A stretch of 64,000 bases of DNA, taken from the NCBI GenBank assembly GCA_964348915.1, contig CAYGEM010000001.1, forward strand, positions 10,360 to 74,359, in the 5' to 3' direction. Made by a program: the position numbers and the translations under genes. This stretch comes from an uncultured Candidatus Saccharibacteria bacterium (GTDB taxonomy: Bacteria > Patescibacteriota > Minisyncoccia > UBA6257 > Colwellbacteraceae). Of this stretch, positions 3,574-56,228 are shown piece by piece. The notes below the pieces were generated by a model. It was not told the DNA's origin. It did not search any database and saw nothing but the letters and a program-made list of their open reading frames with translations. How positions within the stretch are numbered: the stretch's first letter is position 1; every line of letters begins with the position of its first letter.

Positions 3574-3834
3574 ATGGCAAAGAGACTTTATATTGGCGGT
3601 TTGTCCTACAACACCACCAACGATTCCCTGCGCGACGCGTTCGCGCAGGCCGGAGCCGTCGAGTCGGCTAACGTCATCTTCGATAAGATGACCAGCCGCT
3701 CTCGCGGATTCGGATTCGTGGAGATGTCCAACGACGATGAGGCCCAAAAAGCTATCGACATGTGGAATGAGAAGGAGCTTGACGGCCGCAAGATTACCGT
3801 CAATGAAGCGCGCCCGATGAGGGACGCTCGATAA
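3574..3834 (+). CDS. RRM (RNP-1/RNP-2) RNA-binding protein
   Basis: RNP-2-like LYIGGLSY and RNP-1 RGFGFVEM motifs; 86 aa; followed by an intrinsic terminator. Confidence 0.8.
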   Translation: MAKRLYIGGLSYNTTNDSLRDAFAQAGAVESANVIFDKMTSRSRGFGFVEMSNDDEAQKAIDMWNEKELDGRKITVNEARPMRDAR

Positions 3835-4741: not shown

Positions 4742-5509
4742 ATGCAAAACCAAACTAATTATTACGGAAAACGCAATCTTTTTAATCCGTCATCAGACGA
4801 CCCATTTCGGTTAAGCCGGAGCAAAATCGATTTATTCCTGAACTGCCCCCGTTGTTTTTACCTGGACCAGAAACTGGGTGTCAGCCGGCCGGCCGGCTAT
4901 CCCTTTTCGCTTAATGCCGCGGTGGACACCTTATTGAAAAAAGAATTTGACTATTACCGCAAACGGCAAGAGCCGCACCCGCTTATGATTTCTCACGAAA
5001 TCGACGCCGTTCCTTTCGCCCATGAAGATTTGGAAAAATGGCGGGATTCCTTAAGGCGCGGCATAGATTACATTCATCCGAAAACGAACTTTCGAATAAC
5101 CGGCGGCATTGACGATGTCTGGATAAATCCGGCAAAGGAACTTTTCATCGTCGATTACAAAGCCACGGCCAAGAATTCAGAAGTAAATTTGGATGCCGAA
5201 TGGCAGAAGGGCTATAAGAGACAGATGGAAATTTACCAATGGCTGTTCCGCCGGAACGGATTCGCGGTTTCGCCGATTGGTTATTTTGTTTACGCCAACG
5301 GACGGCTGGACCTCGATCGGTTCGATGCCAAATTGGAATTTATTTTGAAAATTTTGCCCTATGAAGGCAATGATTCCTGGGTAGAGAAAAAATTAACAGA
5401 GGCCAGAGAATGCTTGTCGGCCGGAACTCCGCCCGAGGCCGCGCCGGAATGCGAATACTGTTGTTACGCGGAAAAATATCCGCGCAATAGGAATTGCGCA
5501 ACCCTGTAA
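4742..5509 (+). CDS. Stand-alone Cas4/RecB-like PD-(D/E)XK nuclease with a putative 4Fe-4S Cys cluster
   Basis: RecB nuclease motifs GGIDDVW (II), IVDYKAT (III) and QMEIYQWL (QhxxY); N-terminal CPRC and C-terminal CEYCCY...C cysteines as in Cas4/DUF83. Start moved to Met 4742 (ORF listed from 4658). Confidence 0.6.
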   Translation: MQNQTNYYGKRNLFNPSSDDPFRLSRSKIDLFLNCPRCFYLDQKLGVSRPAGYPFSLNAAVDTLLKKEFDYYRKRQEPHPLMISHEIDAVPFAHEDLEKWRDSLRRGIDYIHPKTNFRITGGIDDVWINPAKELFIVDYKATAKNSEVNLDAEWQKGYKRQMEIYQWLFRRNGFAVSPIGYFVYANGRLDLDRFDAKLEFILKILPYEGNDSWVEKKLTEARECLSAGTPPEAAPECEYCCYAEKYPRNRNCATL

Positions 5510-5890
5510 GCCGGATTCTGTCTGGTTCCGACCTAAGTCGGAACGAGGCGATAATTTATCTAAGGCCCTCGATTTCTCTCGGGCTCGTGCGGCACTTCCT
5601 TCGACTTTGCTCGGGACTAATCCGGAGCTTGTCGAAAGACGCGGCCTTGCACCCAGCAAGGATTTAACCGTTTCACCTCCGAAGTCGCCTTCGGAGCTCG
5701 CCCCGACCGAAGTCGGGGCGCCTCAACCCTTTCGGGTTTCGGCGTCTCTGTTCGCACCTCTACTCCGACCTGGGGTCGGAGCGGCGGTAATTAGCCGATG
5801 CTGTTATCCCTCGATCCGCCAGCTGGCGGACTCGGGACGGGTGTCCGGACTTTCCTCTCCGATTTTAATCGGAGCTATCGCCCAGGTTGC
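5498..5890 (-). ncRNA. rnpB: RNase P RNA, bacterial type A
   Basis: The minus-strand transcript has the P4 motifs GAGGAAAGUCCGG (about 5835-5850) and ACAGAAUCCGGCUUAC (about 5506-5521). GCAACCUG at the 5' end pairs with CAGGGUUGC at the 3' end (P1). It also has an E. coli-like GCAAGGCC element. ORFs 5393..5659 (-) and 5607..5900 (+) overlap it and are judged spurious. Confidence 0.8.
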
Positions 5891-5908
5891 AAAAAGATAA
5901 TGTCACTA

Positions 5909-6304
5909 TCAAAGTAAAGAGTCAAGGGCACGATTGGCAAGAGAGTCGGCGCGGCGGTTCTTTTCCCGCGGAATTCGCGTAAACTTCACGGCTTTAAAAT
6001 CCTGTTTCAAATTCCAAATATCCACGAAAAGAGGAATCAAATTTTTGTCCTTCAGCTTGTATTCCCCGATAAGCTGACGATGCAGAAGTTCGCTGTCCAT
6101 TTTTATTTCGACTTCGGTTTCTTTGGCTTTCTTTTTTCCGAGCAGTTGTTTGGCTTTTTTCAAGCCGAAAATGGCCGCCCGGTATTCGGCTACATTATTG
6201 GTCAGAACGCCGATGGCTTGGGAATATTCCCTGTCGCCTACCAGAACGCCGATTCCGGCCGGGCCGGGATTTCCGCGACTCGCGCCATCACAATAGATTG
6301 TTAA
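5909..6304 (-). CDS. rnhA: Ribonuclease HI (start codon unresolved)
   Basis: The listed 84-aa ORF (TTG start) is only the C-terminal half (REKNRRADSLANRALD). The same frame continues upstream to 6304 and encodes the RNase H N-terminal motifs (TIYCDGASRGNPGPAG, NNVAEYRAA). No ATG/GTG/TTG lies before the upstream in-frame stop at 6347-6349. Confidence 0.65.
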   Translation of the reverse strand, partial: LTIYCDGASRGNPGPAGIGVLVGDREYSQAIGVLTNNVAEYRAAIFGLKKAKQLLGKKKAKETEVEIKMDSELLHRQLIGEYKLKDKNLIPLFVDIWNLKQDFKAVKFTRIPREKNRRADSLANRALDSLL

Positions 6305-7146
6305 TTTATTTTTTTCCAGGGGAAATTTATTTTGCCATCTTTGATTTTAACAATGAAACCGGAAGCCGCCTTGTGTCCTCCCCCGCCGCGCTTGGCGGCG
6401 ATTTCAGCCACGTCAGTTTCGCCGGCGGAACGGAGAGAAACTTCAAGCCGGCTGTTGCGGTAGCGCCAGATTATGCCGAAATCACGGCACCTTGTCGCGA
6501 GAATATGGCCGATTTCTGAAACGAGGAGAGGCGAATTAACCGCAAGAACCCGATGGCCGGCGAATTCCACCGATTCGGCGGAAGCGGATATTTTTTCCAT
6601 CGCTTTCAATTTATAGGATTCGATGGCCCGGCCGATTTCGCCGTATTTTTTTCTTTTTTCGGCCGACTCAAAATCTTTGGCAAGCTTGCTCCAGAGGCGG
6701 AAATCAAAGCCAAAAGTGTCGAGCGCCGAAAGCAATTCGCGACTCTTCGCGAGCTTGAAACGCCAGAGGTCGCCGTCCTCGACATATTTAAGAAGTTTGG
6801 GAACCGATTTCCTCGGATGAAAATATTTCCATGCCGAAACGGCGCCGGAATGATTGAGGTCAAAAAACGCCTCATCGGCATACCGAAGGTATTCCTGCTG
6901 GCTGATGTGATGGTCGATGGCGACAAGCCGGTGGTTCTTTTTCTTGAATTCAATCAATTGATTTTTGACAGAGGGGAAAAAATCCAGAAAATAGACGTCT
7001 TTTCCGTCGCCGATGTCCGGCAAGGGGGCTTGATGTTCTACGGCCAGATAAGCGGCTTTTTTACCGAATTTCTTCCAAGCGGCCCAAGCGGCGCCGAAAC
7101 CATCGGCGCAATTGCGATGATAGATGACCACGATTTTTTTAGTCAT
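6301..7146 (-). CDS. DHH/DHHA1 phosphoesterase (NrnA-like nanoRNase / pAp phosphatase)
   Basis: DHH motif (LVAIDHH) and C-terminal DHHA1 GGGH motif (KRGGGGHKAASGF); 281 aa. Confidence 0.75.
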   Translation of the reverse strand: MTKKIVVIYHRNCADGFGAAWAAWKKFGKKAAYLAVEHQAPLPDIGDGKDVYFLDFFPSVKNQLIEFKKKNHRLVAIDHHISQQEYLRYADEAFFDLNHSGAVSAWKYFHPRKSVPKLLKYVEDGDLWRFKLAKSRELLSALDTFGFDFRLWSKLAKDFESAEKRKKYGEIGRAIESYKLKAMEKISASAESVEFAGHRVLAVNSPLLVSEIGHILATRCRDFGIIWRYRNSRLEVSLRSAGETDVAEIAAKRGGGGHKAASGFIVKIKDGKINFPWKKIN

Positions 7147-8221
7147 ATTTTTTATTTTTTGCGTTCTTGACCAAAGCTTCTATTCCGGGCATTTTTTCTC
7201 CGCTAAGATACGCTAACATGGCTCCCCCGCCGGGAGAAAGATGGTCTATCTTTCCGGAAACGCCGGCTTCTTCAATCGCCCGCAGAGTGTCTCCTCCGCC
7301 GACGATTGAAAAAGCTTTGGAGTCGGCGACGGCTTTCGCGATAGAAAATGTTCCGGCAGAGAATTTTTTAATTTCAAAAACGCCCAAAGGTCCAACCCAA
7401 ATTATCGCTTTAGCTTCTTTAATTATTTTGGAGTACGCAACGACAGTTTTGGAACCGATATCGAATATATCATCTTTTCGAACGGCATAATCAAACGGCA
7501 TCATTATTTTGCGGGGGTATTTTTTTAGTAAAAACCTGACCAAGGAGACGACCTTTTTACCGCCTAAAGGTTTGGTCCGGCAGCCGGCTTCTCTCAAAAA
7601 CAAATTGCCGGGTATTCCGCCAAGGAGAACGCGATCTACCCGGGGGATGATTTTTTTTAATCGCTTGATTTTATCTTCGGCTTTGGCGCCGCCGACAATC
7701 AATATTCGCGGCCGGTGACGGGAAGATAGAGCTGAATTCAGGGCTTTCAGCTCGGCGAGAAGATTCGGCCCGGGAAAGCTGGCTAAAAAAGAAGCTATTC
7801 CGCAAGTCGAAGCATGCTCGCGATGAGAACTGGAAAAATCATCATTGACGTAAATATCGCCAAGAGAAGCAAGGGCGCGACTGACTGTTTTGGAGTTGCT
7901 CGTCTCGCCGGAAAGAAAACGAACATTTTCAAGGAGAAAAATCGAATCAGCCGGAGATCCCTTAATTTTTTCCGCCATCTCGCCAAAATTGAAACCGGGC
8001 AGAAAAATTATCCGCCGATTTATTTTTTGGCTAAGCAATCGGCCGGACGGCCGGAGGGTCAAACGACCGTCGCTCTTTTTCGGATTGCCGCGATGGCTTA
8101 ACAGCACTATTTTGCCGCCGAATTTTCGGAACCATTTGATCGCGGACGCGGCCTGGCTAATCCGGATTAAAGAAGGATGACGAGGGTCAAAATCCAGATT
8201 GACACGCAAAAGGCAGGTCAT
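7139..8221 (-). CDS. pgk: Phosphoglycerate kinase
   Basis: PGK signatures VNDDFSSSHREHAS, IVGGAKAEDKI and SIVGGGDT; 360 aa. Confidence 0.85.
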   Translation of the reverse strand: MTCLLRVNLDFDPRHPSLIRISQAASAIKWFRKFGGKIVLLSHRGNPKKSDGRLTLRPSGRLLSQKINRRIIFLPGFNFGEMAEKIKGSPADSIFLLENVRFLSGETSNSKTVSRALASLGDIYVNDDFSSSHREHASTCGIASFLASFPGPNLLAELKALNSALSSRHRPRILIVGGAKAEDKIKRLKKIIPRVDRVLLGGIPGNLFLREAGCRTKPLGGKKVVSLVRFLLKKYPRKIMMPFDYAVRKDDIFDIGSKTVVAYSKIIKEAKAIIWVGPLGVFEIKKFSAGTFSIAKAVADSKAFSIVGGGDTLRAIEEAGVSGKIDHLSPGGGAMLAYLSGEKMPGIEALVKNAKNKKYD

Positions 8222-8311
8222 TTAAAAACTCATCGAGGCGATGGTCACCAAAGCGACGATGATAATCACCACGCGCACCAATATTTGTTTTCTACTTTTC
8301 CGCTTGCTCAT
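8222..8311 (-). CDS. Candidate 29-aa single-TM micro-protein
   Basis: ATG at 8311 to TAA at 8222 encodes MSKRKSRKQILVRVVIIIVALVTIASMSF. It sits in the tpiA-pgk gap where secG often lies in bacteria, and overlaps the tpiA 3' end by 20 nt. It is below the 60-aa cutoff of the ORF track. Confidence 0.2.
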   Translation of the reverse strand: MSKRKSRKQILVRVVIIIVALVTIASMSF

Positions 8312-9008
8312 GAATTAAAGATATCTTTCTTACTTCCGACCTGTCCATGCTGGCGCCGCCGACCAAAAGTCCCGCTATTTTCGGCGAAGAAAGAAAGGAC
8401 GAAGCGTTTTTCGAATTTACAGAACCGCCGTAGAGCACGAGCGGATTCTGACCGGAACGTTTAATGACATAATCGCTTATCTGTTTCGCGAGTGATTGGA
8501 CTTTAGAAGGGCTGTCCGCTTTGCCGCCGCCGATCGCGCCGGAAGGTTCGTAGACATAAATTATTTTCGCCAATTGTTCCGGGGAAAGCAAGCCAGTGGC
8601 CGCTTTCAGCTGACGGACGACGATACTCCCGGCCGCGGCAATGCCGACCAACCGGCCAAGTTCTCCCAAGCAAAGAATCGGCGTGATACCGAGCTTCAAA
8701 CAAGAGACCAGCTTGCGACTGATTATCGCCGGAGTTTCTTTTAAATGCATCCTTCTTTCGCTATGGCCGATTATGGAAAATTCGACGCCAGCTTCGGCAA
8801 GTTCATCCACGGAAACCTCGCCAGTATAAGCGCCGGGAGACCAAAAAGCATCCTGGCTGCCCAGCCGGGCTTTTTGAAGAACAGCGCGGACCGCGGGAAT
8901 AAACAGAAAAGGCGGACAGATGATAAAATTTTCGCAATCGGAATCGCGAGCGAGAGAAGCCGCTTCGTTTTCATTATTGGGATTGCATTTCCAGTTAAGA
9001 ACAATCAT
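8292..9008 (-). CDS. tpiA: Triosephosphate isomerase
   Basis: NWKCN, IIGHSERR and YEPSGAIGGGK motifs; 238 aa. Confidence 0.85.
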   Translation of the reverse strand: MIVLNWKCNPNNENEAASLARDSDCENFIICPPFLFIPAVRAVLQKARLGSQDAFWSPGAYTGEVSVDELAEAGVEFSIIGHSERRMHLKETPAIISRKLVSCLKLGITPILCLGELGRLVGIAAAGSIVVRQLKAATGLLSPEQLAKIIYVYEPSGAIGGGKADSPSKVQSLAKQISDYVIKRSGQNPLVLYGGSVNSKNASSFLSSPKIAGLLVGGASMDRSEVRKISLIHEQAEK

Positions 9009-18780: not shown

Positions 18781-20055
18781 TCAAACTTCGTATTCGCGAA
18801 TTTTCAGTTCAGAATCGATTTTTTGAGCGGTTTCCAGGGCGACGGAAACGACAATCAGGAGAGCGGTGCCGCCAACAGTCAGATTGGGCTGATTAGTGAT
18901 GGCTTGGGTGATAATCGGAAGAACGGCGATCAGTCCGAGAAACAACGCGCCGAACAAAGTAATGCGATTTATCACGTGAGAAAGATATTGGGCGGTTGGC
19001 TGTCCCGGCCGGATGCCGGCGACGAATCCGCCGGCGCGCTGAAGGTTTTTGGAAATCTCTTCGGGATTAAACACAATCGAGGTGTAAAAATAAGTAAAAA
19101 TGAAAACTAAAATAAAATAGGCCGCGCCGTAAGCCAGGTGATTCGCCTGGAACGACTGGGCAAAATTGTTAATGCTCTGGCTAAGCGGCAAGGAAAAAGC
19201 GCTGACAATCTGACTCAATAGTTGCGGAAAAATCAGAAGAGAAATGGCGAAAATTATCGGGATAACACCGGCCTGGTTGAGACGGATAGGCAGATAAGTC
19301 GAAACACCGCCATACATCCGATTTCCCCGCACTCGCTTGGCGTAAGAAACCGGTATTTTCCTCTCGGCAGCATTGATGACGGCGACGCCGGCGATAACAG
19401 CCAGAGCAAGCAGGGCGAAAATCAAAAGAGTGTCAATTCTCATTTCCCCTTGGCTCAATTTGTCCAAAACGCCGAACGCCGATACCGGCAAGCTGCTCAC
19501 GATTCCGGCAAAAATTATAAATGACACGCCGTTGCCGAGCTTTTGTTCGCCAATCAGTTCGCCGAGCCACAAAACAAGCATGGAACCGGCGGTGATGACC
19601 AAAACATTGATTAAAATTCCGGAAATAGTCATACCCGGCATCACGCCGCGGGAAGCGAGAAAACGCAGGAAACCGAAGCCCGACAAAACAGCCAGAGGCA
19701 CGGTAAGAGTGCGCCCCAGACGTTCGAATTTCGCCCGGCCTTCGGCGCCTTCCTCGTAATAATATTCTTTCAACCGGGGAAAAATCATGGTCAGAAGCTG
19801 AAGAATAATGGTGGCGGTAATATACGGCCCGACACCCAGCATGGCTATTGAAAGTTTTTCCAGGGCGCCGCCGGAAACGATATTCATATAACCAAGGCCG
19901 GGAGTGTTTGCGATAAGATTGGCCAGTTGAGTATGGTCGATGCCCGGAATCGGAATCGCGGCGAACAGCCGAAAAACCACCAAAAGCCCGGCAATAATGA
20001 ATATCCTTTTCCGCAAACCGGGCGTTTTGAGGATTTTGAAGAAATTAGCGAACAT
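18781..20055 (-). CDS. secY: Preprotein translocase subunit SecY
   Basis: 424 aa, 10-TM protein with the conserved N-terminal LRKRIFIIAGLLVVFRLFAAIPIPG. Confidence 0.95.
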   Translation of the reverse strand: MFANFFKILKTPGLRKRIFIIAGLLVVFRLFAAIPIPGIDHTQLANLIANTPGLGYMNIVSGGALEKLSIAMLGVGPYITATIILQLLTMIFPRLKEYYYEEGAEGRAKFERLGRTLTVPLAVLSGFGFLRFLASRGVMPGMTISGILINVLVITAGSMLVLWLGELIGEQKLGNGVSFIIFAGIVSSLPVSAFGVLDKLSQGEMRIDTLLIFALLALAVIAGVAVINAAERKIPVSYAKRVRGNRMYGGVSTYLPIRLNQAGVIPIIFAISLLIFPQLLSQIVSAFSLPLSQSINNFAQSFQANHLAYGAAYFILVFIFTYFYTSIVFNPEEISKNLQRAGGFVAGIRPGQPTAQYLSHVINRITLFGALFLGLIAVLPIITQAITNQPNLTVGGTALLIVVSVALETAQKIDSELKIREYEV

Positions 20056-20248
20056 GGTGGCGGGATTTATTGCCGCGCAATTTAGGTAAGCGCAGAATTA
20101 TGTCGCGTTCCGCCGGCCGGATTTTCCTGCCCGCGCGCGATTTTTGACCTTTTTGACCGCGTCCGGAATAGCCCCCCCTCTTTCCTCCTCGGCCGATTCT
20201 TTTTTTGTCGCGGGTTTTGTGTTCCGGTTGTAGTTCGTGAATAAGCAT
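20045..20248 (-). CDS. rplO: Ribosomal protein uL15, truncated (N-terminal extension only)
   Basis: 67 aa; RIGRGGKRGG..GRGQKGQKSRAG...RLPKLRG matches the Gly/Arg-rich N-terminal part of L15 up to the RLPKRGF motif; no C-terminal globular domain; 10-nt overlap with secY. Confidence 0.7.
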   Translation of the reverse strand: MLIHELQPEHKTRDKKRIGRGGKRGGYSGRGQKGQKSRAGRKIRPAERDIILRLPKLRGNKSRHHVR

Positions 20249-20258
20249 TGATTCGAAT

Positions 20259-20741
20259 TTATTTTGCCGGTTTTATTTTTTTCAACGCCTCGATAGTCGC
20301 CAACGCATTGGTCAATTTATTTTTGGTCGTACCCAAGCATTTGGCGGTAATATCACTCACTCCGGCCAAAGCCAAGACGGTTCTCACCGCGCCGCCGGCG
20401 AGCAAGCCGTTTCCTTTGCGCGCGGGACGCAACAGCACCCGGGCGGCGCTGAATTTAGCCGTAACCTCGTGAGGAATGGTACCGTTTTTAATCGGAACGC
20501 GAATCATCTCTTTTTTCGCCGCGATTTTCGCCTTATCCACGGCTTGAGCGACATCGCTGCCCTTAGCCACGCCGACTCCAACCCGGCCCTTGCCGTCGCC
20601 GACAGCCACGGTGACGCGGAAGCGAAATCTCTTGCCGCCGGCGACCACCCTGGTTACGCGCCGCAAGTCCAAAACCTGCTCCTGAAATTCATCTTTTTGA
20701 GCTCTAAATGGTTTTCTTCGATTATCCATGTTGAATGCCAT
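20259..20741 (-). CDS. rpsE: Ribosomal protein uS5
   Basis: RVTRVVAGGKRFRFRVTVAVGDGKGRVGVGVAKG; 160 aa. Confidence 0.9.
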   Translation of the reverse strand: MAFNMDNRRKPFRAQKDEFQEQVLDLRRVTRVVAGGKRFRFRVTVAVGDGKGRVGVGVAKGSDVAQAVDKAKIAAKKEMIRVPIKNGTIPHEVTAKFSAARVLLRPARKGNGLLAGGAVRTVLALAGVSDITAKCLGTTKNKLTNALATIEALKKIKPAK

Positions 20742-23083: not shown

Positions 23084-23452
23084 CTAAATTATGTATTCCG
23101 ACAGGGAAACGATTTTTTCGAAACCTTTTTCTTTAAGCTCGCGGGGCACGGGGCCGAAAATACGGGTGCCGAGAGGTTCTTTCTTGGGATTGATGAGAAC
23201 TACGGCATTGTCGTCGAAACGAACATACAATCCTCCGCGGCGGCGCAGATTAGTTCTCGCTCTCACCACCACCGCCTTGACTATGTCTTTTTTCTTTACT
23301 GCTTTGCGGGGTTCGGCTGATTGAACCGAAGCGATAATGATGTCGCCGATTTTAGCGTACCTCTTCCGGCTTCCGCCGAGAATGCGAAAACAACGCACCT
23401 TTTTCGCTCCGGAATTGTCAGCCACGGTCACTATTGTTCTTTCTTGAATCAT
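23084..23452 (-). CDS. rplN: Ribosomal protein uL14
   Basis: MIQERTIVTVADNSGAKKVRCFRILGG; 122 aa. Confidence 0.9.
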   Translation of the reverse strand: MIQERTIVTVADNSGAKKVRCFRILGGSRKRYAKIGDIIIASVQSAEPRKAVKKKDIVKAVVVRARTNLRRRGGLYVRFDDNAVVLINPKKEPLGTRIFGPVPRELKEKGFEKIVSLSEYII

Positions 23453-23706
23453 GCCTTTGTTATTTTACCCGCGACGACCCACTTCTTTTCTTTGGAAATC
23501 GGCTTGGTTTCTTCTATTTTCACGCGGTCGCCGACGCGATAATCGTTTTTCTCCGCATGAGCTTTGTAACGCTTGGTCACAACGAAATATTTCTGGTATT
23601 TCTTGTTCATTTTCTTCCGCGTCACGGCCACCACGACGGTTTTGGCCATACGGTCGGAAACAACCACTCCTTCCAGCGCTCTTTTGATTTTTGAAGATGA
23701 TGTCAT
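23449..23706 (-). CDS. rpsQ: Ribosomal protein uS17
   Basis: 85 aa, S17 family (GVVVSDRMAKTVVVAV). Confidence 0.85.
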   Translation of the reverse strand: MTSSSKIKRALEGVVVSDRMAKTVVVAVTRKKMNKKYQKYFVVTKRYKAHAEKNDYRVGDRVKIEETKPISKEKKWVVAGKITKA

Positions 23707-23715
23707 TATAAATAT

Positions 23716-24132
23716 TTAATCTTCTTTTTCGACGAATTTCACTTTAATCGGCAATTTCGAAGCGGCGAGAACAAAAGCTCTTTTGGCTGTTACCCGGCTT
23801 ACGCCATCCATTTCGAAAAGAATGCGGCCGGGACGAACCGGAAAGACATAATGATCCACCGCTCCTTTGCCTCCGCCCATAGTAACTTCCGGCGGACGCC
23901 TGGTAATCGGCTTATCCGGAAAAACCCTTATCCAAATTTTGCCCTCCCGTTTAATAAAATTGGTCAGGGTTCGGCGGGCCGCTTCGATCTGGTTGGAAGT
24001 GAGCCAAACCGATTCCTGCGCCTGCAAACCATATTGCCCGTAAGCCAGCTTAAGCCCGCGCGTTTCCGTCGTCCTCTTGCGCGAACGTCCTTTTTGCCAT
24101 TTCCTGTGTTTTACTTTTTTAGGTATGAGCAT
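23716..24132 (-). CDS. rplP: Ribosomal protein uL16
   Basis: MLIPKKVKHRKWQKGR; 138 aa. Only 10 nt separate it from rpsQ, so there is no room for rpmC (uL29). Confidence 0.9.
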   Translation of the reverse strand: MLIPKKVKHRKWQKGRSRKRTTETRGLKLAYGQYGLQAQESVWLTSNQIEAARRTLTNFIKREGKIWIRVFPDKPITRRPPEVTMGGGKGAVDHYVFPVRPGRILFEMDGVSRVTAKRAFVLAASKLPIKVKFVEKED

Positions 24133-24140
24133 GATAAAAA

Positions 24141-24821
24141 TTATCTCTTTTCCTCTTTGGCGAACACTTCGCCTTTATTTACCCAAACTTTTATGCCGAT
24201 GGTGCCGTAGGTCGTAAAAGCCGTGGCTTCGCCGTAGTCGATATCTGCCCGGATCTTAGCCAAAGGAAGGGTTCCTTTCTTCAACCATTCGGTCCGGGCG
24301 ATTTCAGCGCCGTTCAGCCGGCCGCCGACCCTTATCTTCGCGCCCTTCACTTCCCGATGGCTCATTATTTCATCCAAGTGCTTTTTCATGGTTTTCCGGA
24401 ATTTATATCTCCGCTCAAGATCGCCGGCGATATTCCGGGCGACCACCTGCGCCGAAACTTCGTTACGGGAAAGTTCGATTACGTTCAGGTTAAGGGGCGA
24501 TTTGTCCGCGATTTTTTCCCTCTTTCGCAAATCAAACACCGCTTTGTTAATAAGGCGCGTCAAATCTTCTATCCCTTTGCCGCCGCGGCCGATAACCAAG
24601 CCGGGCTTGGCCGCCTTGATGTTAATCCGGCAAACATTTCGCAATCTTTCTATTTCCACCGAAGCAATACCGGCGTCTTTGAGTTTCTTATCGACGATTT
24701 TACGGATAGTTTCGTCTTCCTGCAAAAAATAGCGGCGCGCTTTGGTGTCCGCAAACCAGCGCGACTGCCAATTGCGCAGATTGCCCAAGCGAAAAGAAAT
24801 AGGATTTATTTTTTGAGCCAT
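24141..24821 (-). CDS. rpsC: Ribosomal protein uS3
   Basis: 226 aa, KH domain GRGGKGIEDL, S3 family. Confidence 0.9.
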   Translation of the reverse strand: MAQKINPISFRLGNLRNWQSRWFADTKARRYFLQEDETIRKIVDKKLKDAGIASVEIERLRNVCRINIKAAKPGLVIGRGGKGIEDLTRLINKAVFDLRKREKIADKSPLNLNVIELSRNEVSAQVVARNIAGDLERRYKFRKTMKKHLDEIMSHREVKGAKIRVGGRLNGAEIARTEWLKKGTLPLAKIRADIDYGEATAFTTYGTIGIKVWVNKGEVFAKEEKR

Positions 24822-24823
24822 GA

Positions 24824-25342
24824 TTAGTTAGAAATGGTTTTGCGGCGGAAAGTCCGTTTGAAGAAACCCGGCTTTTCGGTTTTCTCCGGTTTTATTTCCA
24901 CGGTCCTGTTTTTCTTGCTTTCCGACCGTTCGCTTTTTTTAATTTTTGAAACTTTTTTCTTGCTCTTTTTAACAACGATGCCGCTGTAAGAAAATTTCGA
25001 TTTCTTCTTCGGACCGGTCGAGAGCTCCATAAAAAGATGGGAGCGCTGTTTATGGAGGGGGGTGGCGCGTCCCTGAGCGCGCGGCAGCCACCTTTTAAGC
25101 CGCATGCCTTTATCAGCGCGGATATTGCTTACGAAAAGATTATCCGCCGTTTGTCCGGCGTTTTTCGCGTTGGCCACGGCGCTGCGGAGAAGCTTCAAAA
25201 TCGGTTGAGCCGCTCTTTCCCGATGCACCAGAAGTTCGGCTTCCGCATCCGCCACGGTCATACCGACAAGGACGCTGGCGGCAAGACGCACTTTGCGCGG
25301 AGTAATATCAAGATTGGAAATTTTTACCACGAATTTTTCCAT
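24824..25342 (-). CDS. rplV: Ribosomal protein uL22 with Lys-rich C-terminal extension
   Basis: L22 core (RKVRLAASVLVGMTVADAEAEL) plus a roughly 60-aa basic tail; 172 aa. Confidence 0.85.
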   Translation of the reverse strand: MEKFVVKISNLDITPRKVRLAASVLVGMTVADAEAELLVHRERAAQPILKLLRSAVANAKNAGQTADNLFVSNIRADKGMRLKRWLPRAQGRATPLHKQRSHLFMELSTGPKKKSKFSYSGIVVKKSKKKVSKIKKSERSESKKNRTVEIKPEKTEKPGFFKRTFRRKTISN

Positions 25343-25360
25343 AATAATCAGCCGGCTGTT

Positions 25361-25672
25361 TTATTTGGTTTTCACCGGAGCGGCCGGCGCGGCTTGCGAC
25401 TTTTGCTCCAATTCTTTCTGCATTTTGCCGCCATGGCGGACGAACTTGCGCGTCGGCGAAAATTCACCCAAACGGTGGCCAATCATTTCTTCCGTTACCC
25501 TGACGGTAATGAAATCCTTCCCGTTATGCACGGCGAAAGAGAACCCTACCATTTCGGGCGAAATTTCACTATTTCTCGCCCAGGTTTTTATCATTGTTCC
25601 CGGAGCGGCCAGTCCTATTTTTTTCTGTAATTTTGGATCCAGATACGGACCTTTTCGAGAGCTTCTGGTCAT
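25361..25672 (-). CDS. rpsS: Ribosomal protein uS19
   Basis: GHRLGEFSPTRKFVRHGG; 103 aa. Confidence 0.9.
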   Translation of the reverse strand: MTRSSRKGPYLDPKLQKKIGLAAPGTMIKTWARNSEISPEMVGFSFAVHNGKDFITVRVTEEMIGHRLGEFSPTRKFVRHGGKMQKELEQKSQAAPAAPVKTK

Positions 25673-25673
25673 A

Positions 25674-26504
25674 TTATTTTTTCCCTCTTCGTTTAACGAT
25701 CAAAGCGTTCGACCATTTTTTCTTGGGCCGCGTCTTGCGTCCGCCGGTTATCTTTCCCCAAATGGTTTTGGGCTTGCGGGTTCCGCGCGGCTGACGACCC
25801 TCTCCTCCGCCGTACGGATGGTCAACCGGATTCATCGCCGAGCCGCGCACAGTCGGGCGAATGCCCATTCTCCGCGCACGACCCGCGTTGCCGATATTCA
25901 CCAAACCCCAGTCCTCATTGGAAACTTTACCGATAGTCGCAAAATTATTCCATAAAATTTTACGCACTTCACCGGAAGACATCTTCACGTGAGTATAGCC
26001 ATTCTCATGCGCCAGCACCTCGCCGTAAGAGCCGGCGGAACGGGCGATTCGTCCTCCGGCACCGGGATTAAGTTCGACATTATAAACGCTGTAACCAACG
26101 AGAATGTTTTTCAACATCATGCGATTTCCCGGCTGAAACGGAGCGACTTCGGCGACGACCACTTCGGCGCCGACCCCGATATTCTGCGGGGCTAAAACGT
26201 ATCGTCTCTCTCCGTCGCGATAAACCAGCTTCATAATGAAAGCGGTGCGATAAGGGTCATATTCCAAGGTTTCCACCCGGGCGGGAACGTTAATCTTATC
26301 GGCCTGATTGAAATCAACGGATCGATAAGTTTTCTTCACTCCCCCGCCCTGATGCCGCATCGTGATGCGGCCCTGATTGTTCCGGCCGCTATGCGCTTTA
26401 AGTTTTCGCGTCAGGCGCTTCTCCGGCGCGACTTTGGATAAAATACCGTAATCCGGCATAGTCATCTTTCTTCTTGATGGAGTTGTGGGTTTGTAGGTTT
26501 TCAT
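25674..26504 (-). CDS. rplB: Ribosomal protein uL2
   Basis: 276 aa; L2 signatures (GRNNQGRITMRHQGGG, VDHPYGGGEG). Confidence 0.95.
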   Translation of the reverse strand: MKTYKPTTPSRRKMTMPDYGILSKVAPEKRLTRKLKAHSGRNNQGRITMRHQGGGVKKTYRSVDFNQADKINVPARVETLEYDPYRTAFIMKLVYRDGERRYVLAPQNIGVGAEVVVAEVAPFQPGNRMMLKNILVGYSVYNVELNPGAGGRIARSAGSYGEVLAHENGYTHVKMSSGEVRKILWNNFATIGKVSNEDWGLVNIGNAGRARRMGIRPTVRGSAMNPVDHPYGGGEGRQPRGTRKPKTIWGKITGGRKTRPKKKWSNALIVKRRGKK

Positions 26505-52821: not shown

Positions 52822-53394
52822 TTATTTTGTCTTCTCCACCCTCTCCGCGTATGTTCCGGTTTCGGTATTAACGCGTATAATATCGTCCTGATTGATGAAA
52901 AGCGGGACATTAATTTTGACTCCCCCTTCAATAATGACCGCTTTGGTTCCGCCCTGAGCGGTGTTGCCCTTAATCCCCGGAGGAGATTCAATAACCTTAA
53001 AATCCATCTTTATCGGGATTTGAATTTTAATCGGCCTGCCATCTATCACAAAAGCGGTAACGGGAGTTTGAGGTTTTAAAAATTGCTTATTGTCTCCCAG
53101 AATTTCTTCGGAGATCATAAAACGGTTTTTGGGATTGCCGACTTCCTGAAACCAATATTCTTTCCTGTGCCCATAAAGAAAAATCGACTCCATTCTCTTC
53201 AGGTCTGTTTCTTCGATTTCATCGCTCGCTTGCCAAGTACGGTCAACAACTTTGCCGCTTACCAAACTCTTCAGCTTAGTCGTCACCACCGCTTTTCTTT
53301 GCTGCATGCGCATAAACGATACGTCCAGAACTTCAAAAATGTCGCCAGCAAATTTAATAACTACTCCTTTTTTGAGATCGTTGTATGAAAGCAT
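52822..53394 (-). CDS. efp: Elongation factor P
   Basis: 190 aa; EF-P N-terminal KOW-like and two OB domains (GDIFEVLDVSFMRMQQRKAVVTTKLKSLVSGK). Confidence 0.85.
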   Translation of the reverse strand: MLSYNDLKKGVVIKFAGDIFEVLDVSFMRMQQRKAVVTTKLKSLVSGKVVDRTWQASDEIEETDLKRMESIFLYGHRKEYWFQEVGNPKNRFMISEEILGDNKQFLKPQTPVTAFVIDGRPIKIQIPIKMDFKVIESPPGIKGNTAQGGTKAVIIEGGVKINVPLFINQDDIIRVNTETGTYAERVEKTK

Positions 53395-53430
53395 TTTTGC
53401 TCCTGCCCTTTTCTCTCACGACCGGATCGC

Positions 53431-54903
53431 TTATTCGGAAGGATTGACCTCTTTCGATTCCTCGACGGGAGATTTTTCCTCCGGCAGTTTCACCTCCATC
53501 GCCTCGGAAAGAGCCCGGCGCAAATCGTCAATGATTATAGGCCTTTTTTCCTTCGGCTTCAAAATTTTATCGAGCGACTGCTCCTCGCGCCGTTCTTTTT
53601 TTTCTCCCGCCCCTTCTCCACCCAGCCATTCAGAAGCAATCATTTTTTCGATGGCGACGCGCGGCACGCCGTACTGCCGACGGCTTTGTTCGATAATCAA
53701 ATCGGCAAAAGATTCTTTAGGCGGTTCGGTCAAGGTTATGGCCGGCAACACCTCGGCGGAAAAAGGATTGGAAACGGCGCCGTCGATGAGAAGTTTGACG
53801 TAAACGCTCGCCCGATCGAGATTGATAAGGTCGTTCGCGGTAAAATCAGGAGCGAATTCTTTTTCCAAAAATTCGGCGTCTTCGGCGCCGACCCGGAAAC
53901 AAACTATCGTGCCGACGTTGCCGAAAATCGCCGGCCGGACTTTCTCCTCGTCCAGTTGTTCAATGTACTGATGAGCCAGAGTGAGGCAAAGCCGGTATTT
54001 GCGCGCTTCGGAGAGAATGGCGGCGAACGATTCGGTGGAAAAATTCTGGAATTCGTCAATATACAGATAGAAATCGCGCCGTTCCTCCTCCGGCGTGTCT
54101 ATCCGGCTCATCGCGGCCTGCTGGATCTTGGTAACGAACATCGCTCCCAAGAGCGCGGAATTGTCTTCTCCTATCCGGCCGCGCGACAAATTGGCAATCA
54201 GGATTTTCCCCTCGTCGATTGCTTTCCGGATATTAATGGTGGATTTCGGCTGGGCGATAATATTCCGGACAAGAGGATTGGAGATGAACTGGCCGACTTT
54301 GTTCTGGATTGCCGCTACGGCTTCGATGGCGTAACGGTCGGTATATCTGGCGAATTCATTCTCCCAGAAGCTTTTGATAACCGGGTCGGCGACATTTTCG
54401 ACAATCTTGCGGCGATAATCTTTTTCGGAAAGCATCCGGATTATCCCGACGATGCTCGAACCGGGAAATTCAAGCAGAGCCAACAGAGTGTTGTTCAAAA
54501 TGTATTCCATGCGAGCAGACCAGACATCCGGCCATATTTTTTTGAAAACGCCCATCAATCCGGAAGCGATCAGATGCCGGTATTCGCCGGAGACGGCCTC
54601 CAAAGGGTTGAATCCCACGGGATATTCGGTGTCCGTCGGATTGAAATAAATCACGTCGTCAATCCGGTCGGCCGGAATATAACGCAGGATTTGTTCGGCG
54701 AATTCGCCGTGCGGGTCGACCAAAGCCATGCCTTCGCCATTACGGATATCGTGGATGAACATGTTCTCCATCAATTTGGTCTTTCCGCTGCCGGTTTTGC
54801 CGACGATATACAAATGCTGGCGCCGATCGCGACGCTTGATTCCGAAAGGCGTGTTTTTACCTCGAAAATTAGTTTGTCCGAAAAAATTGATTTCGTTCAT
54901 CAA
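53431..54903 (-). CDS. VirD4/TraD/TraG-family (T4SS coupling-protein-like) P-loop ATPase lacking an N-terminal membrane domain
   Basis: Walker A YIVGKTGSGKT, adjacent VDPHGE motif typical of T4CPs, Walker B LYIDEFQNF; 490 aa soluble. Confidence 0.5.
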   Translation of the reverse strand: MMNEINFFGQTNFRGKNTPFGIKRRDRRQHLYIVGKTGSGKTKLMENMFIHDIRNGEGMALVDPHGEFAEQILRYIPADRIDDVIYFNPTDTEYPVGFNPLEAVSGEYRHLIASGLMGVFKKIWPDVWSARMEYILNNTLLALLEFPGSSIVGIIRMLSEKDYRRKIVENVADPVIKSFWENEFARYTDRYAIEAVAAIQNKVGQFISNPLVRNIIAQPKSTINIRKAIDEGKILIANLSRGRIGEDNSALLGAMFVTKIQQAAMSRIDTPEEERRDFYLYIDEFQNFSTESFAAILSEARKYRLCLTLAHQYIEQLDEEKVRPAIFGNVGTIVCFRVGAEDAEFLEKEFAPDFTANDLINLDRASVYVKLLIDGAVSNPFSAEVLPAITLTEPPKESFADLIIEQSRRQYGVPRVAIEKMIASEWLGGEGAGEKKERREEQSLDKILKPKEKRPIIIDDLRRALSEAMEVKLPEEKSPVEESKEVNPSE

Positions 54904-54905
54904 AT

Positions 54906-56228
54906 TTATCCTATAGGCAGATTCGGCGGCGGCGCGCCTTTAACGGCCTTGACCGGACGAAGACCTGTCCCCTCAACAATCGTGGAAACCGGCAGATGGT
55001 AAATGCTTGCCAGTTCCTCAAGATTCAAAACCGGAAGATGGTACAAGTCCCGATGGATAAAATATCTGGTTTCCGGGAAAGAACGGTTCAAATAATTTTT
55101 GTAAATATTCTTTTTCCTCATCTGCAGAAGATATTTTCGGAAGAAAAAGCGGGGTTTCATAGTCCAAGTCGCCTTTGCCGGACCGAGCCAGTTCAAGTTG
55201 TTATCGGCGTAAAGCCGGGATGCGCCCATTAAAGCGGTAGTAATGCCGGAATTGTATGCGTCCATCTTGGCAATATAAACTTGCCGGATGGTTGTAGTGT
55301 AGCCCTGTTTGGAAATTTTATTCCCTACCGCTTTCATTCTGTCGGTCTCAACCGGAGAATATAAACGGAATGTCTTCTGCTCTTCTTTTTTATCTTCCGG
55401 CCAATCCGGCAATTCGAACGGCGCCTTGATTAAATTGCGAAGAAAATGAAATGTTTCTTCCACCATGGCGCCGATGAAATTCTTTTGGGTTTTGGCTTTT
55501 TGCCCGGTGGCCATTGCCTCAATCGCCTTTTTTCCTTCCTCTTTCCACTTTTCCGAGCTGGGCCGGATAAGAATTTGCATCCAGATGTGTTCTCCTTCTT
55601 TCAAATTCGACATAAGCTCGACAATGACGGAAATCGGGTCGACGCGCGCCTCTTCTTCTTTCCGGGCGGTTTCCTCAAAAAAATAAGTATAAGTCCGGAT
55701 GGGGAAATAATCCGGTTTTTTCAGAATAAACTCGACGCCCCACAAGTTATATTCGTCGTTCGGCAGATCCGGCGGCAGTTCCTTGGTATAATCCTCTGTC
55801 TCGACAATCTCGGCGTTCGGGTACTGCGAGAAAAAAGAGGACTCAATGATGTTGCGGAGTTTCTCGGGCGCCCGGACGTAAAATCTGACTCCGCCATCTG
55901 ACGAGCCGGCAATCTCGAGCGACATCCGATTATTCAATTTACCCGTAGTAATCCAAGTTTCTTCCCAGTGTATGGAAATATCCATCGAATACAAGCTGGC
56001 GAAAACATGCTCCATGGCTTTCGGCGTCCGGATATTTTCCTTGGGTATTTTTATCTCGTAAACCCGCCAATTCAGATTGCGAAGATATTTTTTCTGCAGA
56101 CGGATGCCGCGGCTGTAAAACAGATAATAAACAACCAAAACGATGGCAACGATAGGTGCCGCCTTGAAAGAATACGAAAACGCGTTGGTTATGAACGATA
56201 ATGCAAGTTGGATTGCATCAGCCATCAA
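54906..56228 (-). CDS. Hypothetical membrane-anchored protein partnered with the T4CP-like ATPase
   Basis: N-terminal TM (AAPIVAIVLVVYYLFYS) then roughly 400-aa soluble domain; its stop is 3 nt from the ATPase start and its start overlaps the upstream regulator by 4 nt. Confidence 0.4.
   Translation of the reverse strand: MMADAIQLALSFITNAFSYSFKAAPIVAIVLVVYYLFYSRGIRLQKKYLRNLNWRVYEIKIPKENIRTPKAMEHVFASLYSMDISIHWEETWITTGKLNNRMSLEIAGSSDGGVRFYVRAPEKLRNIIESSFFSQYPNAEIVETEDYTKELPPDLPNDEYNLWGVEFILKKPDYFPIRTYTYFFEETARKEEEARVDPISVIVELMSNLKEGEHIWMQILIRPSSEKWKEEGKKAIEAMATGQKAKTQKNFIGAMVEETFHFLRNLIKAPFELPDWPEDKKEEQKTFRLYSPVETDRMKAVGNKISKQGYTTTIRQVYIAKMDAYNSGITTALMGASRLYADNNLNWLGPAKATWTMKPRFFFRKYLLQMRKKNIYKNYLNRSFPETRYFIHRDLYHLPVLNLEELASIYHLPVSTIVEGTGLRPVKAVKGAPPPNLPIG

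Follow-up and report, generated by a model that had tools for sequence, protein, structure and literature searches.

Positions 5909-7146 on the minus strand of a 64,000-nt stretch of contig CAYGEM010000001.1 (the window), which belongs to an uncultured patescibacterium, carry two overlapping genes: one for a DHH/DHHA1 phosphoesterase and, downstream of it, rnhA, an open reading frame (ORF) for ribonuclease HI (RNase HI) that has no canonical start codon (Table 1). The RNase H frame extends without interruption from 6346 to the TGA at 5911-5909 and is bounded upstream by an in-frame TAA at 6349-6347; its translation begins NQRWQNKFPLEKNKLTIYCDGASRGNPG and ends RADSLANRALDSLL. This frame is -1 relative to that of the DHH gene (7146..6301), whose 3′ end reads CCC-TGG-AAA-AAA-ATA-AAT-TAA. 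The RNase H frame contains no ATG, GTG or TTG until an internal TTG at 6163, by which point two of the four catalytic residues (D11 and E45) have already been passed. A run of exactly seven A residues (A7; 6315-6309) is located inside the 19-nt overlap of the two genes, and encodes Lys-Lys in DHH and Glu-Lys-Asn in rnhA. An initial annotation of this DNA had already described a complete RNase HI frame at -1 to DHH/DHHA1, the lack of any ATG, GTG or TTG between the RNase H N-terminal motif and the upstream in-frame stop, and the A7 run with this very DHH end at the junction; all three descriptions hold, the first being confirmed by the ORFs and by full-length Pfam matches. It did not single out the in-frame CTG at 6319-6317, which stands 10 codons before the catalytic Asp and is, together with an ATC at 6298-6296, one of only two in-frame near-cognate codons upstream of that residue. 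This CTG straddles two DHH codons: its C closes the Pro codon CCC, and its TG opens the Trp codon TGG. The DHH stop codon begins 16 nt past the CTG, and ribosomes finishing the DHH gene would terminate right in the rnhA initiation region.

Table 1. Features of the DHH-rnhA locus and the adjoining RNA gene in the window
Feature	Position	Strand	Remarks
DHH/DHHA1 phosphoesterase gene (NrnB-like)	6301..7146	-	281 aa; ORF call, weak Pfam DHH and DHHA1 matches
rnhA, RNase HI ORF	5909..6319	-	136 codons from CTG; stop TGA 5911-5909; Pfam, PDB, dN/dS
CTG, putative near-cognate rnhA start	6317..6319	-	orthologous position is ATG in the nearest other species (contigs L002-L006)
A7 run in mRNA (T7 on plus strand), possible but unproven slippage site	6309..6315	-	
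TAA stop of DHH gene	6301..6303	-	begins 16 nt downstream of rnhA CTG
rnpB, bacterial type A RNase P RNA	5491..5893	-	Rfam RF00010, 101.7 bits, gathering score 100, full length

The rnhA assignment is based on the type 1 RNase H families of Pfam (PF00075 and PF13456). The predicted product matches both RVT_3 (58.2 bits with a cut-off of 21.6, 1e-15, profile positions 2-123 of 123) and RNase_H (44.2 bits with a cut-off of 25.8, 2.8e-11, profile positions 2-139 of 141), and the catalytic DEDD residues, numbered from the CTG, are D11 (YCDG), E45 (NNVAEY), D75 (KMDSEL), and D125 (RRADSL). In the PDB its closest matches are the 140-aa RNase H chains 3u3g and 4h8k, which align with residues 4-135 (E 4e-30). 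All four acidic catalytic positions are identical in 3u3g, from which 4h8k differs by a change of Asp to Asn at the position of D75. Both entries, which we take to be the metagenome-derived LC11-RNase H1, represent the same compact RNase HI subtype as rnhA, and so does the N-terminal RNase H domain of M. tuberculosis Rv2228c (3hst), although rnhA has diverged from them in the rest of its sequence and is distinguished by its unusual start codon. By these matches the rnhA product counts as an ordinary compact RNase HI bearing the RVT_3-type signature. The DHH protein scores 20.9 bits with Pfam DHH and 20.1 bits with DHHA1, both below the gathering thresholds, and matches NrnA of NCBIfam at 20 bits in its C-terminal part only. 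The motifs AIDHH and GGGGH are nevertheless visible in it, its close homologues carry both Pfam domains, and JGI lists some of the homologues under the name oligoribonuclease NrnB/DHH superfamily. The homologues number more than 3800, and each of the top 120 is a stand-alone protein of 265-314 aa.

A copy of the DHH protein 99% identical to that of the window is encoded on an ENA contig (L001), and orthologues are present on five contigs (L002-L006; one spans 103 kb) of the nearest other species, in which DHH is 69% and RNase H 82% identical to the window and the gene order is the same, namely MreC-PBP2-TIM-PGK-DHH-RNase H. On these five contigs, rnhA is a separate 136-aa gene with an ATG start, and its first 19 nt are shared with the 3′ end of DHH. 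The ATG-bearing sister genome is found under JGI 3300035551 (contig Ga0393987_02906). The sister junction reads GTT-TTT-CCA-TGG-AAA-AAA-ATA-AGC-TGA in the DHH frame and ATG-GAA-AAA-AAT-AAG-CTG-ATC-ATT-TAT-TGC-GAC-GGC in the RNase H frame, where the window has CTG-GAA-AAA-AAT-AAA-TTA-ACA-ATC-TAT-TGT-GAT-GGC. The start context is TTTTTCC-ATG-GAAAAAAATAAG in the sister species and TTTCCC-CTG-GAAAAAAATAAA in the window, so that MEKNKL becomes LEKNKL. A single A-to-C transversion, which is silent in DHH (Pro CCA to CCC), separates the two start regions at this codon, and the alignment identifies the window CTG as the orthologue of the sister ATG. Because the ATG-bearing sister already possesses an identical A7 run, this run predates the loss of ATG and was not selected for slippage.

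To place this junction among its relatives, contigs of metagenomes and GTDB genomes were scanned with the RNase H protein, which yielded 152 more loci and a set of 133 distinct related loci. They derive from Patescibacteria of the Paceibacteria/Parcubacteria type, including Colwell-, Jorgensen-, Wolfe-, Lipton-, and Niyogibacteria. A canonical rnhA start, nearly always ATG, is found in all of them except the window and contigs L001 and L007, and where it is present it precedes the catalytic Asp by 5-16 codons (usually 7-11), or by 23 codons in two loci. The arrangement CC-NTG-G, in which the rnhA start lies inside Pro and Trp codons of DHH, occurs in 32 distinct loci; the start is ATG in 27, GTG in one, and CTG in four, the last being the three contigs of the window clade and one locus from Niyogibacteria (L152). 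Among relatives with this arrangement the A run in the overlap is 3 to 7 long. Within the window, the absence of a start was checked further by running Pfam on 10 other long-leader ORFs, each translated from stop to stop; no second case emerged from this test, which can detect only ORFs with recognisable domains, and the two ORFs with domain matches (DnaJ and Ham1) both match from just past their first canonical start. The lack of a canonical start at rnhA is unusual, and among the 133 loci it is confined to the window clade.

The CTG, the A7 run, and an intact rnhA ORF recur in four assemblies, namely the window, ENA ERZ841155, JGI Ga0315273, and Logan ERR13950607, the last of which contributed a contig (L159) found by a second protein search outside the census. 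These contigs come from different projects and samples and differ pairwise at 7-29 of 405 compared rnhA bases. In all four strains rnhA is free of stops and indels and keeps the four catalytic residues. The ratio of non-synonymous to synonymous substitution rates (dN/dS), calculated by the Nei-Gojobori method (NG86), is 0.047-0.148 for rnhA among the four strains with dS of 0.07-0.29, and 28 variable codon columns are synonymous only as against nine with an amino-acid change. Between the window and L001 alone, 22 synonymous and six non-synonymous codon differences were counted (binomial P = 4e-9 against 75% non-synonymous), and the corresponding dN/dS of the neighbouring genes is 0.077 for DHH, 0.16 for PGK, and 0.18 for TIM. 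In codons 2-52, a stretch that contains D11 and E45 and ends before any internal canonical start, dN/dS is at most 0.10 in the four strains. Since dN/dS is low throughout, including this N-terminal part, the substitution pattern indicates that the full-length rnhA frame is translated despite the missing canonical start and that it is kept by selection in the start-less lineage. A gene without a canonical start has thus persisted in four strains under purifying selection over its whole ORF.

We consider it probable that rnhA is translated mainly by CUG initiation and gives rise to a normal, free RNase HI. Non-canonical initiation was among the candidates listed in the initial annotation, and it is the one favoured by the comparative data, which place the CTG exactly where the relatives have ATG. 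The ancestral rnhA ATG, embedded in CCA-TGG of DHH, would have been changed to CTG by the A-to-C transversion; the initiator tRNA would then pair with the near-cognate CUG at 6319-6317 and allow low-level translation. The product would be the same 136-residue protein as in the relatives, with fMet in place of the coded Leu. Ribosomes that translate DHH and terminate 16 nt downstream of the CUG would probably help this initiation, and so would the A-rich initiation region. We infer CUG, not slippage on A7, as the main route, together with low expression and a coupling to DHH translation; this coupling across a 19-nt overlap is put forward as a proposal, not as an established fact. In E. coli, CUG initiation reaches about 1-2% of AUG initiation, ranging from 0.02 to 3% across constructs (10.1101/063800), and CTG is the verified start of the E. 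coli genes hda and yfjD (PMC3531124). Discrimination against CUG is affected by the three G-C pairs in the anticodon stem of the initiator tRNA (PMC11497404). The closest solved homologue is a free-standing protein of 140 aa that starts MNKIIIYTDG, and therefore rnhA needs no N-terminal partner. Of the Pro codons in the window, CCA is used least (75 times, versus 191 for CCC and 437 for CCG), which makes drift away from CCA plausible; such drift would be expected when selection on the rnhA start is weak. A change of the first C of the CTG to A, G or T would in each case create a canonical start (ATG, GTG or TTG) and would in each case be silent in DHH. Because the CTG has persisted over dS of up to 0.29, the low-expression state is suggested to be at most mildly deleterious, and this persistence argues that very low initiation is enough for RNase HI, or even preferred.

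Several points weigh against CUG initiation. The start is one that we infer from sequence comparison, and CUG is a poor initiator in E. coli, the single organism for which its efficiency has been measured (10.1101/063800). No Shine-Dalgarno (SD)-like element was found before the CTG, nor do the ATG-bearing orthologues have one. Just 1 nt past the CTG there is a slippery N-AAA-AAA, correctly phased, which would likewise lead ribosomes into the rnhA frame, and C-AAA-AAA, a site of this type, produced -1 frameshifting of 25-60% when carried by an E. coli overexpression vector (PMC1851650). Furthermore, the 30 nt from the CTG to the Asp codon are identical in the four strains, and for this reason the comparative data do not separate CUG initiation from slippage. 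As to the SD element, the motifs GGAG, GAGG or AGGA occur at -20 to -4 of eight of 72 ORF starts in the window (approximate, the first canonical start being taken as the start in each ORF), versus a background of 13% inside genes, and so show no enrichment. These frequencies suggest that the organism initiates largely in an SD-independent manner; start recognition presumably relies on the A-rich region and on ribosomes arriving via the upstream gene.

Expression of rnhA in this lineage falls into a known rare class, that of bacterial CTG-start genes, and is not a new kind of system. It shares with E. coli hda and yfjD (EcoGene 3.0, PMC3531124) a functional gene, a CTG at the start position indicated by conservation, and a presumably low expression. 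In contrast to these two genes, the rnhA start was located solely from orthology and selection, the CTG is nested in the upstream gene with a 19-nt overlap and arose recently from ATG in a narrow clade, and the host is an uncultured member of Patescibacteria without evident SD use. Termination-reinitiation pairs (PMC6728339, PMC10666635) resemble DHH and rnhA in being co-directional, in having stop and start a few nt apart, and in a downstream start that lacks an SD element. However, the typical overlap in such pairs is 4 or 1 nt, and very short overlaps are stressed in that literature (PMC10666635), whereas DHH and rnhA overlap by 19 nt here and by 16-22 nt in many relatives. What sets this locus apart within the class is a CTG start nested in an overlapping gene and datable against an ATG-bearing sister species.

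The most serious alternative is slippage on the A7 run, either as a -1 ribosomal frameshift of tRNA-Lys on G-AAA-AAA-A or as the addition of one A by RNA polymerase. It would supply RNase H activity after the ATG loss in the form of a 412-residue fusion, ...INFPWKK-NKLTIYCDG..., with the linker KKNK; the predicted junction peptide of an Asp-N digest is DGKINFPWKKNKLTIYC. We regard slippage as an unlikely main route, and it is doubtful that the lineage makes its RNase HI mainly or partly as a two-nuclease fusion through unassisted slippage on a pre-existing A7. The geometry fits, in that the zero-frame codons are AAA-AAA and the A-site tRNA would re-pair perfectly after the shift, with the P-site tRNA re-pairing at two positions (GAA), an imperfect fit shared by the published C-AAA-AAA site. 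The high frameshifting of the C-AAA-AAA constructs in E. coli, those of pDEST17, was obtained without a proven stimulator (PMC1851650), and even a single tRNA-Lys slip at A-AAA, as in IS1 and PVM, amounts to 0.3-1%, which is of the same order as CUG initiation (PMC1851650). A gene for tRNA-Lys(UUU) is present in the window. Purifying selection, for its part, shows that the rnhA frame is translated, not by which route.

Comparison with relatives nevertheless argues against the frameshift fusion of DHH and RNase H that the initial annotation had made its headline. The orthologue with the identical A7 run has its own ATG, and the run is older than the ATG loss; a normal ATG-initiated rnhA in orthologues is the very finding that the annotation had itself named as speaking against a fusion. 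DHH lies directly upstream of rnhA on the same strand in 79 of the 133 distinct loci. No fused DHH-rnhA gene was found in these 79, in which the longest open leader is 79 codons, and the two genes stand in all three relative frames (0, +1, and +2) with spacings from a 111-nt gap to a 44-nt overlap; as the A-run length varies as well, the site is not conserved. When a hypothetical fusion of 412 aa, encoded by a run of A8, was compared with 5.8 billion proteins, the top 120 matches (265-314 aa) covered the DHH part only.

The sequence surrounding the run gives no sign of a programmed site either. Folding of 6345-6200 (146 nt) revealed no stimulatory structure after A7 (z = -0.41; 64 of 200 shuffled sequences fold as well), the first GC hairpin comes only after more than 20 nt, and no GGAGG-like (SD-like) element is visible upstream of the run. 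Among the features of a programmed -1 site, the slippery heptamer and its phase are present; absent are a stimulator, which would be a hairpin or pseudoknot some 5-9 nt downstream or an SD-like sequence upstream, and conservation together with a start-less downstream ORF. The A7 run is not statistically special in the window, which contains 60 A/T runs of at least 7 nt. Within its approximately 72 ORFs, 41 of the runs are A runs on the sense strand, and 24 of these 41 have the same N-AAA-AAA-A phase, including several near the beginning of long genes and one that falls on codons 3-4 of DHH itself; Lys is encoded by AAA 1147 times versus 457 times by AAG. The shift rate at A7 is probably low, because efficient shifting at 24 runs of the same phase would be costly. 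Polymerase slippage is evident in bacterial genomes at 8-9 A (PMC1088944), and the run is 7 in all four strains, below this threshold.

Known slippery sites show the same mixture of likeness and difference. The sites A-AAA-AAG of dnaX, A-AAA of IS1 insA-insB, and C-AAA-AAA of pDEST17 (PMC1851650; PMC5009743) likewise combine a lysine-encoding A run, placed where an upstream ORF ends, with a following ORF in the -1 frame, and the N-AAA-AAA phase of A7 is that of the pDEST17 case. Unlike these, A7 has no hairpin or SD-like stimulator, its motif is common in the ORFs of this genome, the slippery run and the frame relation are not conserved, and rnhA of the relatives has its own start codon. The slippage runs of A9/T9 in Thermus dnaX, Shigella mxiE, and IS elements (PMC1088944) are also homopolymers at an ORF junction at which one additional A joins the frames, but it is at 9 residues, or at 8 in some genomes, that such runs are either selected against or put to use, whereas the run here is 7 and 7-runs are abundant. 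Of the slippage candidates in the initial annotation, low-level slippage on A7 survives as a possible minor, contributing or alternative route, and both routes may occur.

Two further explanations are far less probable than slippage. Initiation at the ATC at 6298-6296, the Ile of TIYCDG, would yield a protein with just three residues ahead of the catalytic Asp. In E. coli, AUC falls with CUG in the 1-2% class of near-cognate starts (10.1101/063800), and the ATC is situated just past the DHH stop codon. However, such a start would remove most of the first beta strand, the minimum start-to-Asp distance among the 133 loci is five codons, and it is the CTG, not the ATC, that occupies the orthologous start position; we therefore hold this route to be very improbable. 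It is equally improbable that rnhA is a pseudogene, inactivated recently by start loss with its decay still to come. The missing canonical start and the skipping or truncation of rnhA by gene callers on L001 and L159 would agree with inactivation, but across dS of 0.07-0.29 the four CTG strains maintain a dN/dS of 0.05-0.15, a constraint as strong as that on DHH, PGK, and TIM, and this constraint, the lack of stops and indels, and the retained catalytic residues led us to reject it. Finally, an assembly or sequencing error, either in the homopolymer length, as the initial annotation had allowed with a 1-nt error, or at the ATG, is excluded, even though homopolymers are error-prone on some sequencing platforms, by the identical A7 and CTG in four independently assembled, diverged contigs, which are not copies of one assembly since they differ at 7-29 other rnhA positions.

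With CUG initiation as the preferred reading, the rnhA locus offers a clean case, found in nature, of one gene's start codon lying within another gene, and also a simple test bed, in an SD-poor organism, for near-cognate initiation versus lysine-run slippage as the means of rescuing start loss. If the fusion were true instead, the locus would represent a natural 'saviour' frameshift that had turned into the expression route of a conserved housekeeping gene.

A CTG at the ancestral start position is also observed in an independent lineage. In the Niyogibacteria locus L152 (approximately 1455-1500; Candidatus Niyogibacteria RIFCSPLOWO2_12_FULL_41_13, MHMS01000022.1) the sequence is TTTCC-CTG-GAAACAAAT-ATG-A, with a new ATG four codons downstream of the CTG that overlaps the DHH stop as ATGA. 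Judging from its sequence, the same start loss seems to have occurred at this locus and to have been compensated.

The divergence among strains is uneven along the operon: dS between the window and L001 is 0.29 in rnhA, 0.08 in DHH and PGK, and 0.13 in TIM, which could reflect recombination between strains within the operon. Automatic gene calling on the clade contigs handles rnhA poorly. In L001 the gene was missed and a 74-aa antisense ORF (3596-3820 on the minus strand, equivalent to 6080-6304 on the plus strand of the window) was called instead, which is a spurious call; in L159 rnhA was cut to 98 aa (1686-1982, protein P0124), starting at an internal TTG that arose in this strain alone from CTG. 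With rnhA missed or truncated in this way, the lineage would be scored as lacking RNase HI.

The genes around rnhA are closely packed. TIM, PGK, DHH, rnhA, and rnpB form a tightly overlapping string in the window (5491-9008, minus strand), in which the start of DHH overlaps PGK by 8 nt and a spacer of 16 nt separates the rnhA stop from rnpB, which is encoded on the same strand; the position of RNase H directly upstream of rnpB, noted in the initial annotation, is confirmed by the Rfam match. DHH and rnhA constitute a conserved co-directional pair whose overlaps are often 16-22 nt with the rnhA ATG inside CC-ATG-G. Their pairing suggests a functional link in which RNase H yields oligoribonucleotides and the nanoRNase-like DHH enzyme degrades them. 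An rnpB next to rnhA reaches the Rfam gathering score in three of 20 relatives (L089, 1956-2352; L103, 1940-2274; L118, 1966-2342), and in L003 the adjacency is seen by sequence similarity with a score below gathering. Because RNase P RNAs are divergent and score near the threshold, absences of rnpB in relatives are uninformative.

Elsewhere in the window, several long ORFs on the plus strand have leaders of 26-99 codons before the first canonical start (23356-24827, 25209-25955, and 53389-55002). Four such ORFs (23701-24210, 24138-24827, 25209-25955, and 53389-55002) have no match in Pfam, the sole check applied to them, and may be shadow ORFs or unannotated genes. In the ribosomal-protein cluster, a Gly/Arg/Lys-rich ORF of 67 aa (20045-20248, minus strand; MLIHELQPEHKTRDKKRIGRGGKRGG) without a Pfam match occupies the usual place of uL15, between an S5-like ORF (20259-20741) and SecY (18781-20055). 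There is no room before SecY for the remainder of uL15, and the ORF presumably resembles the N-terminal extension of uL15 without the globular C-terminal domain.

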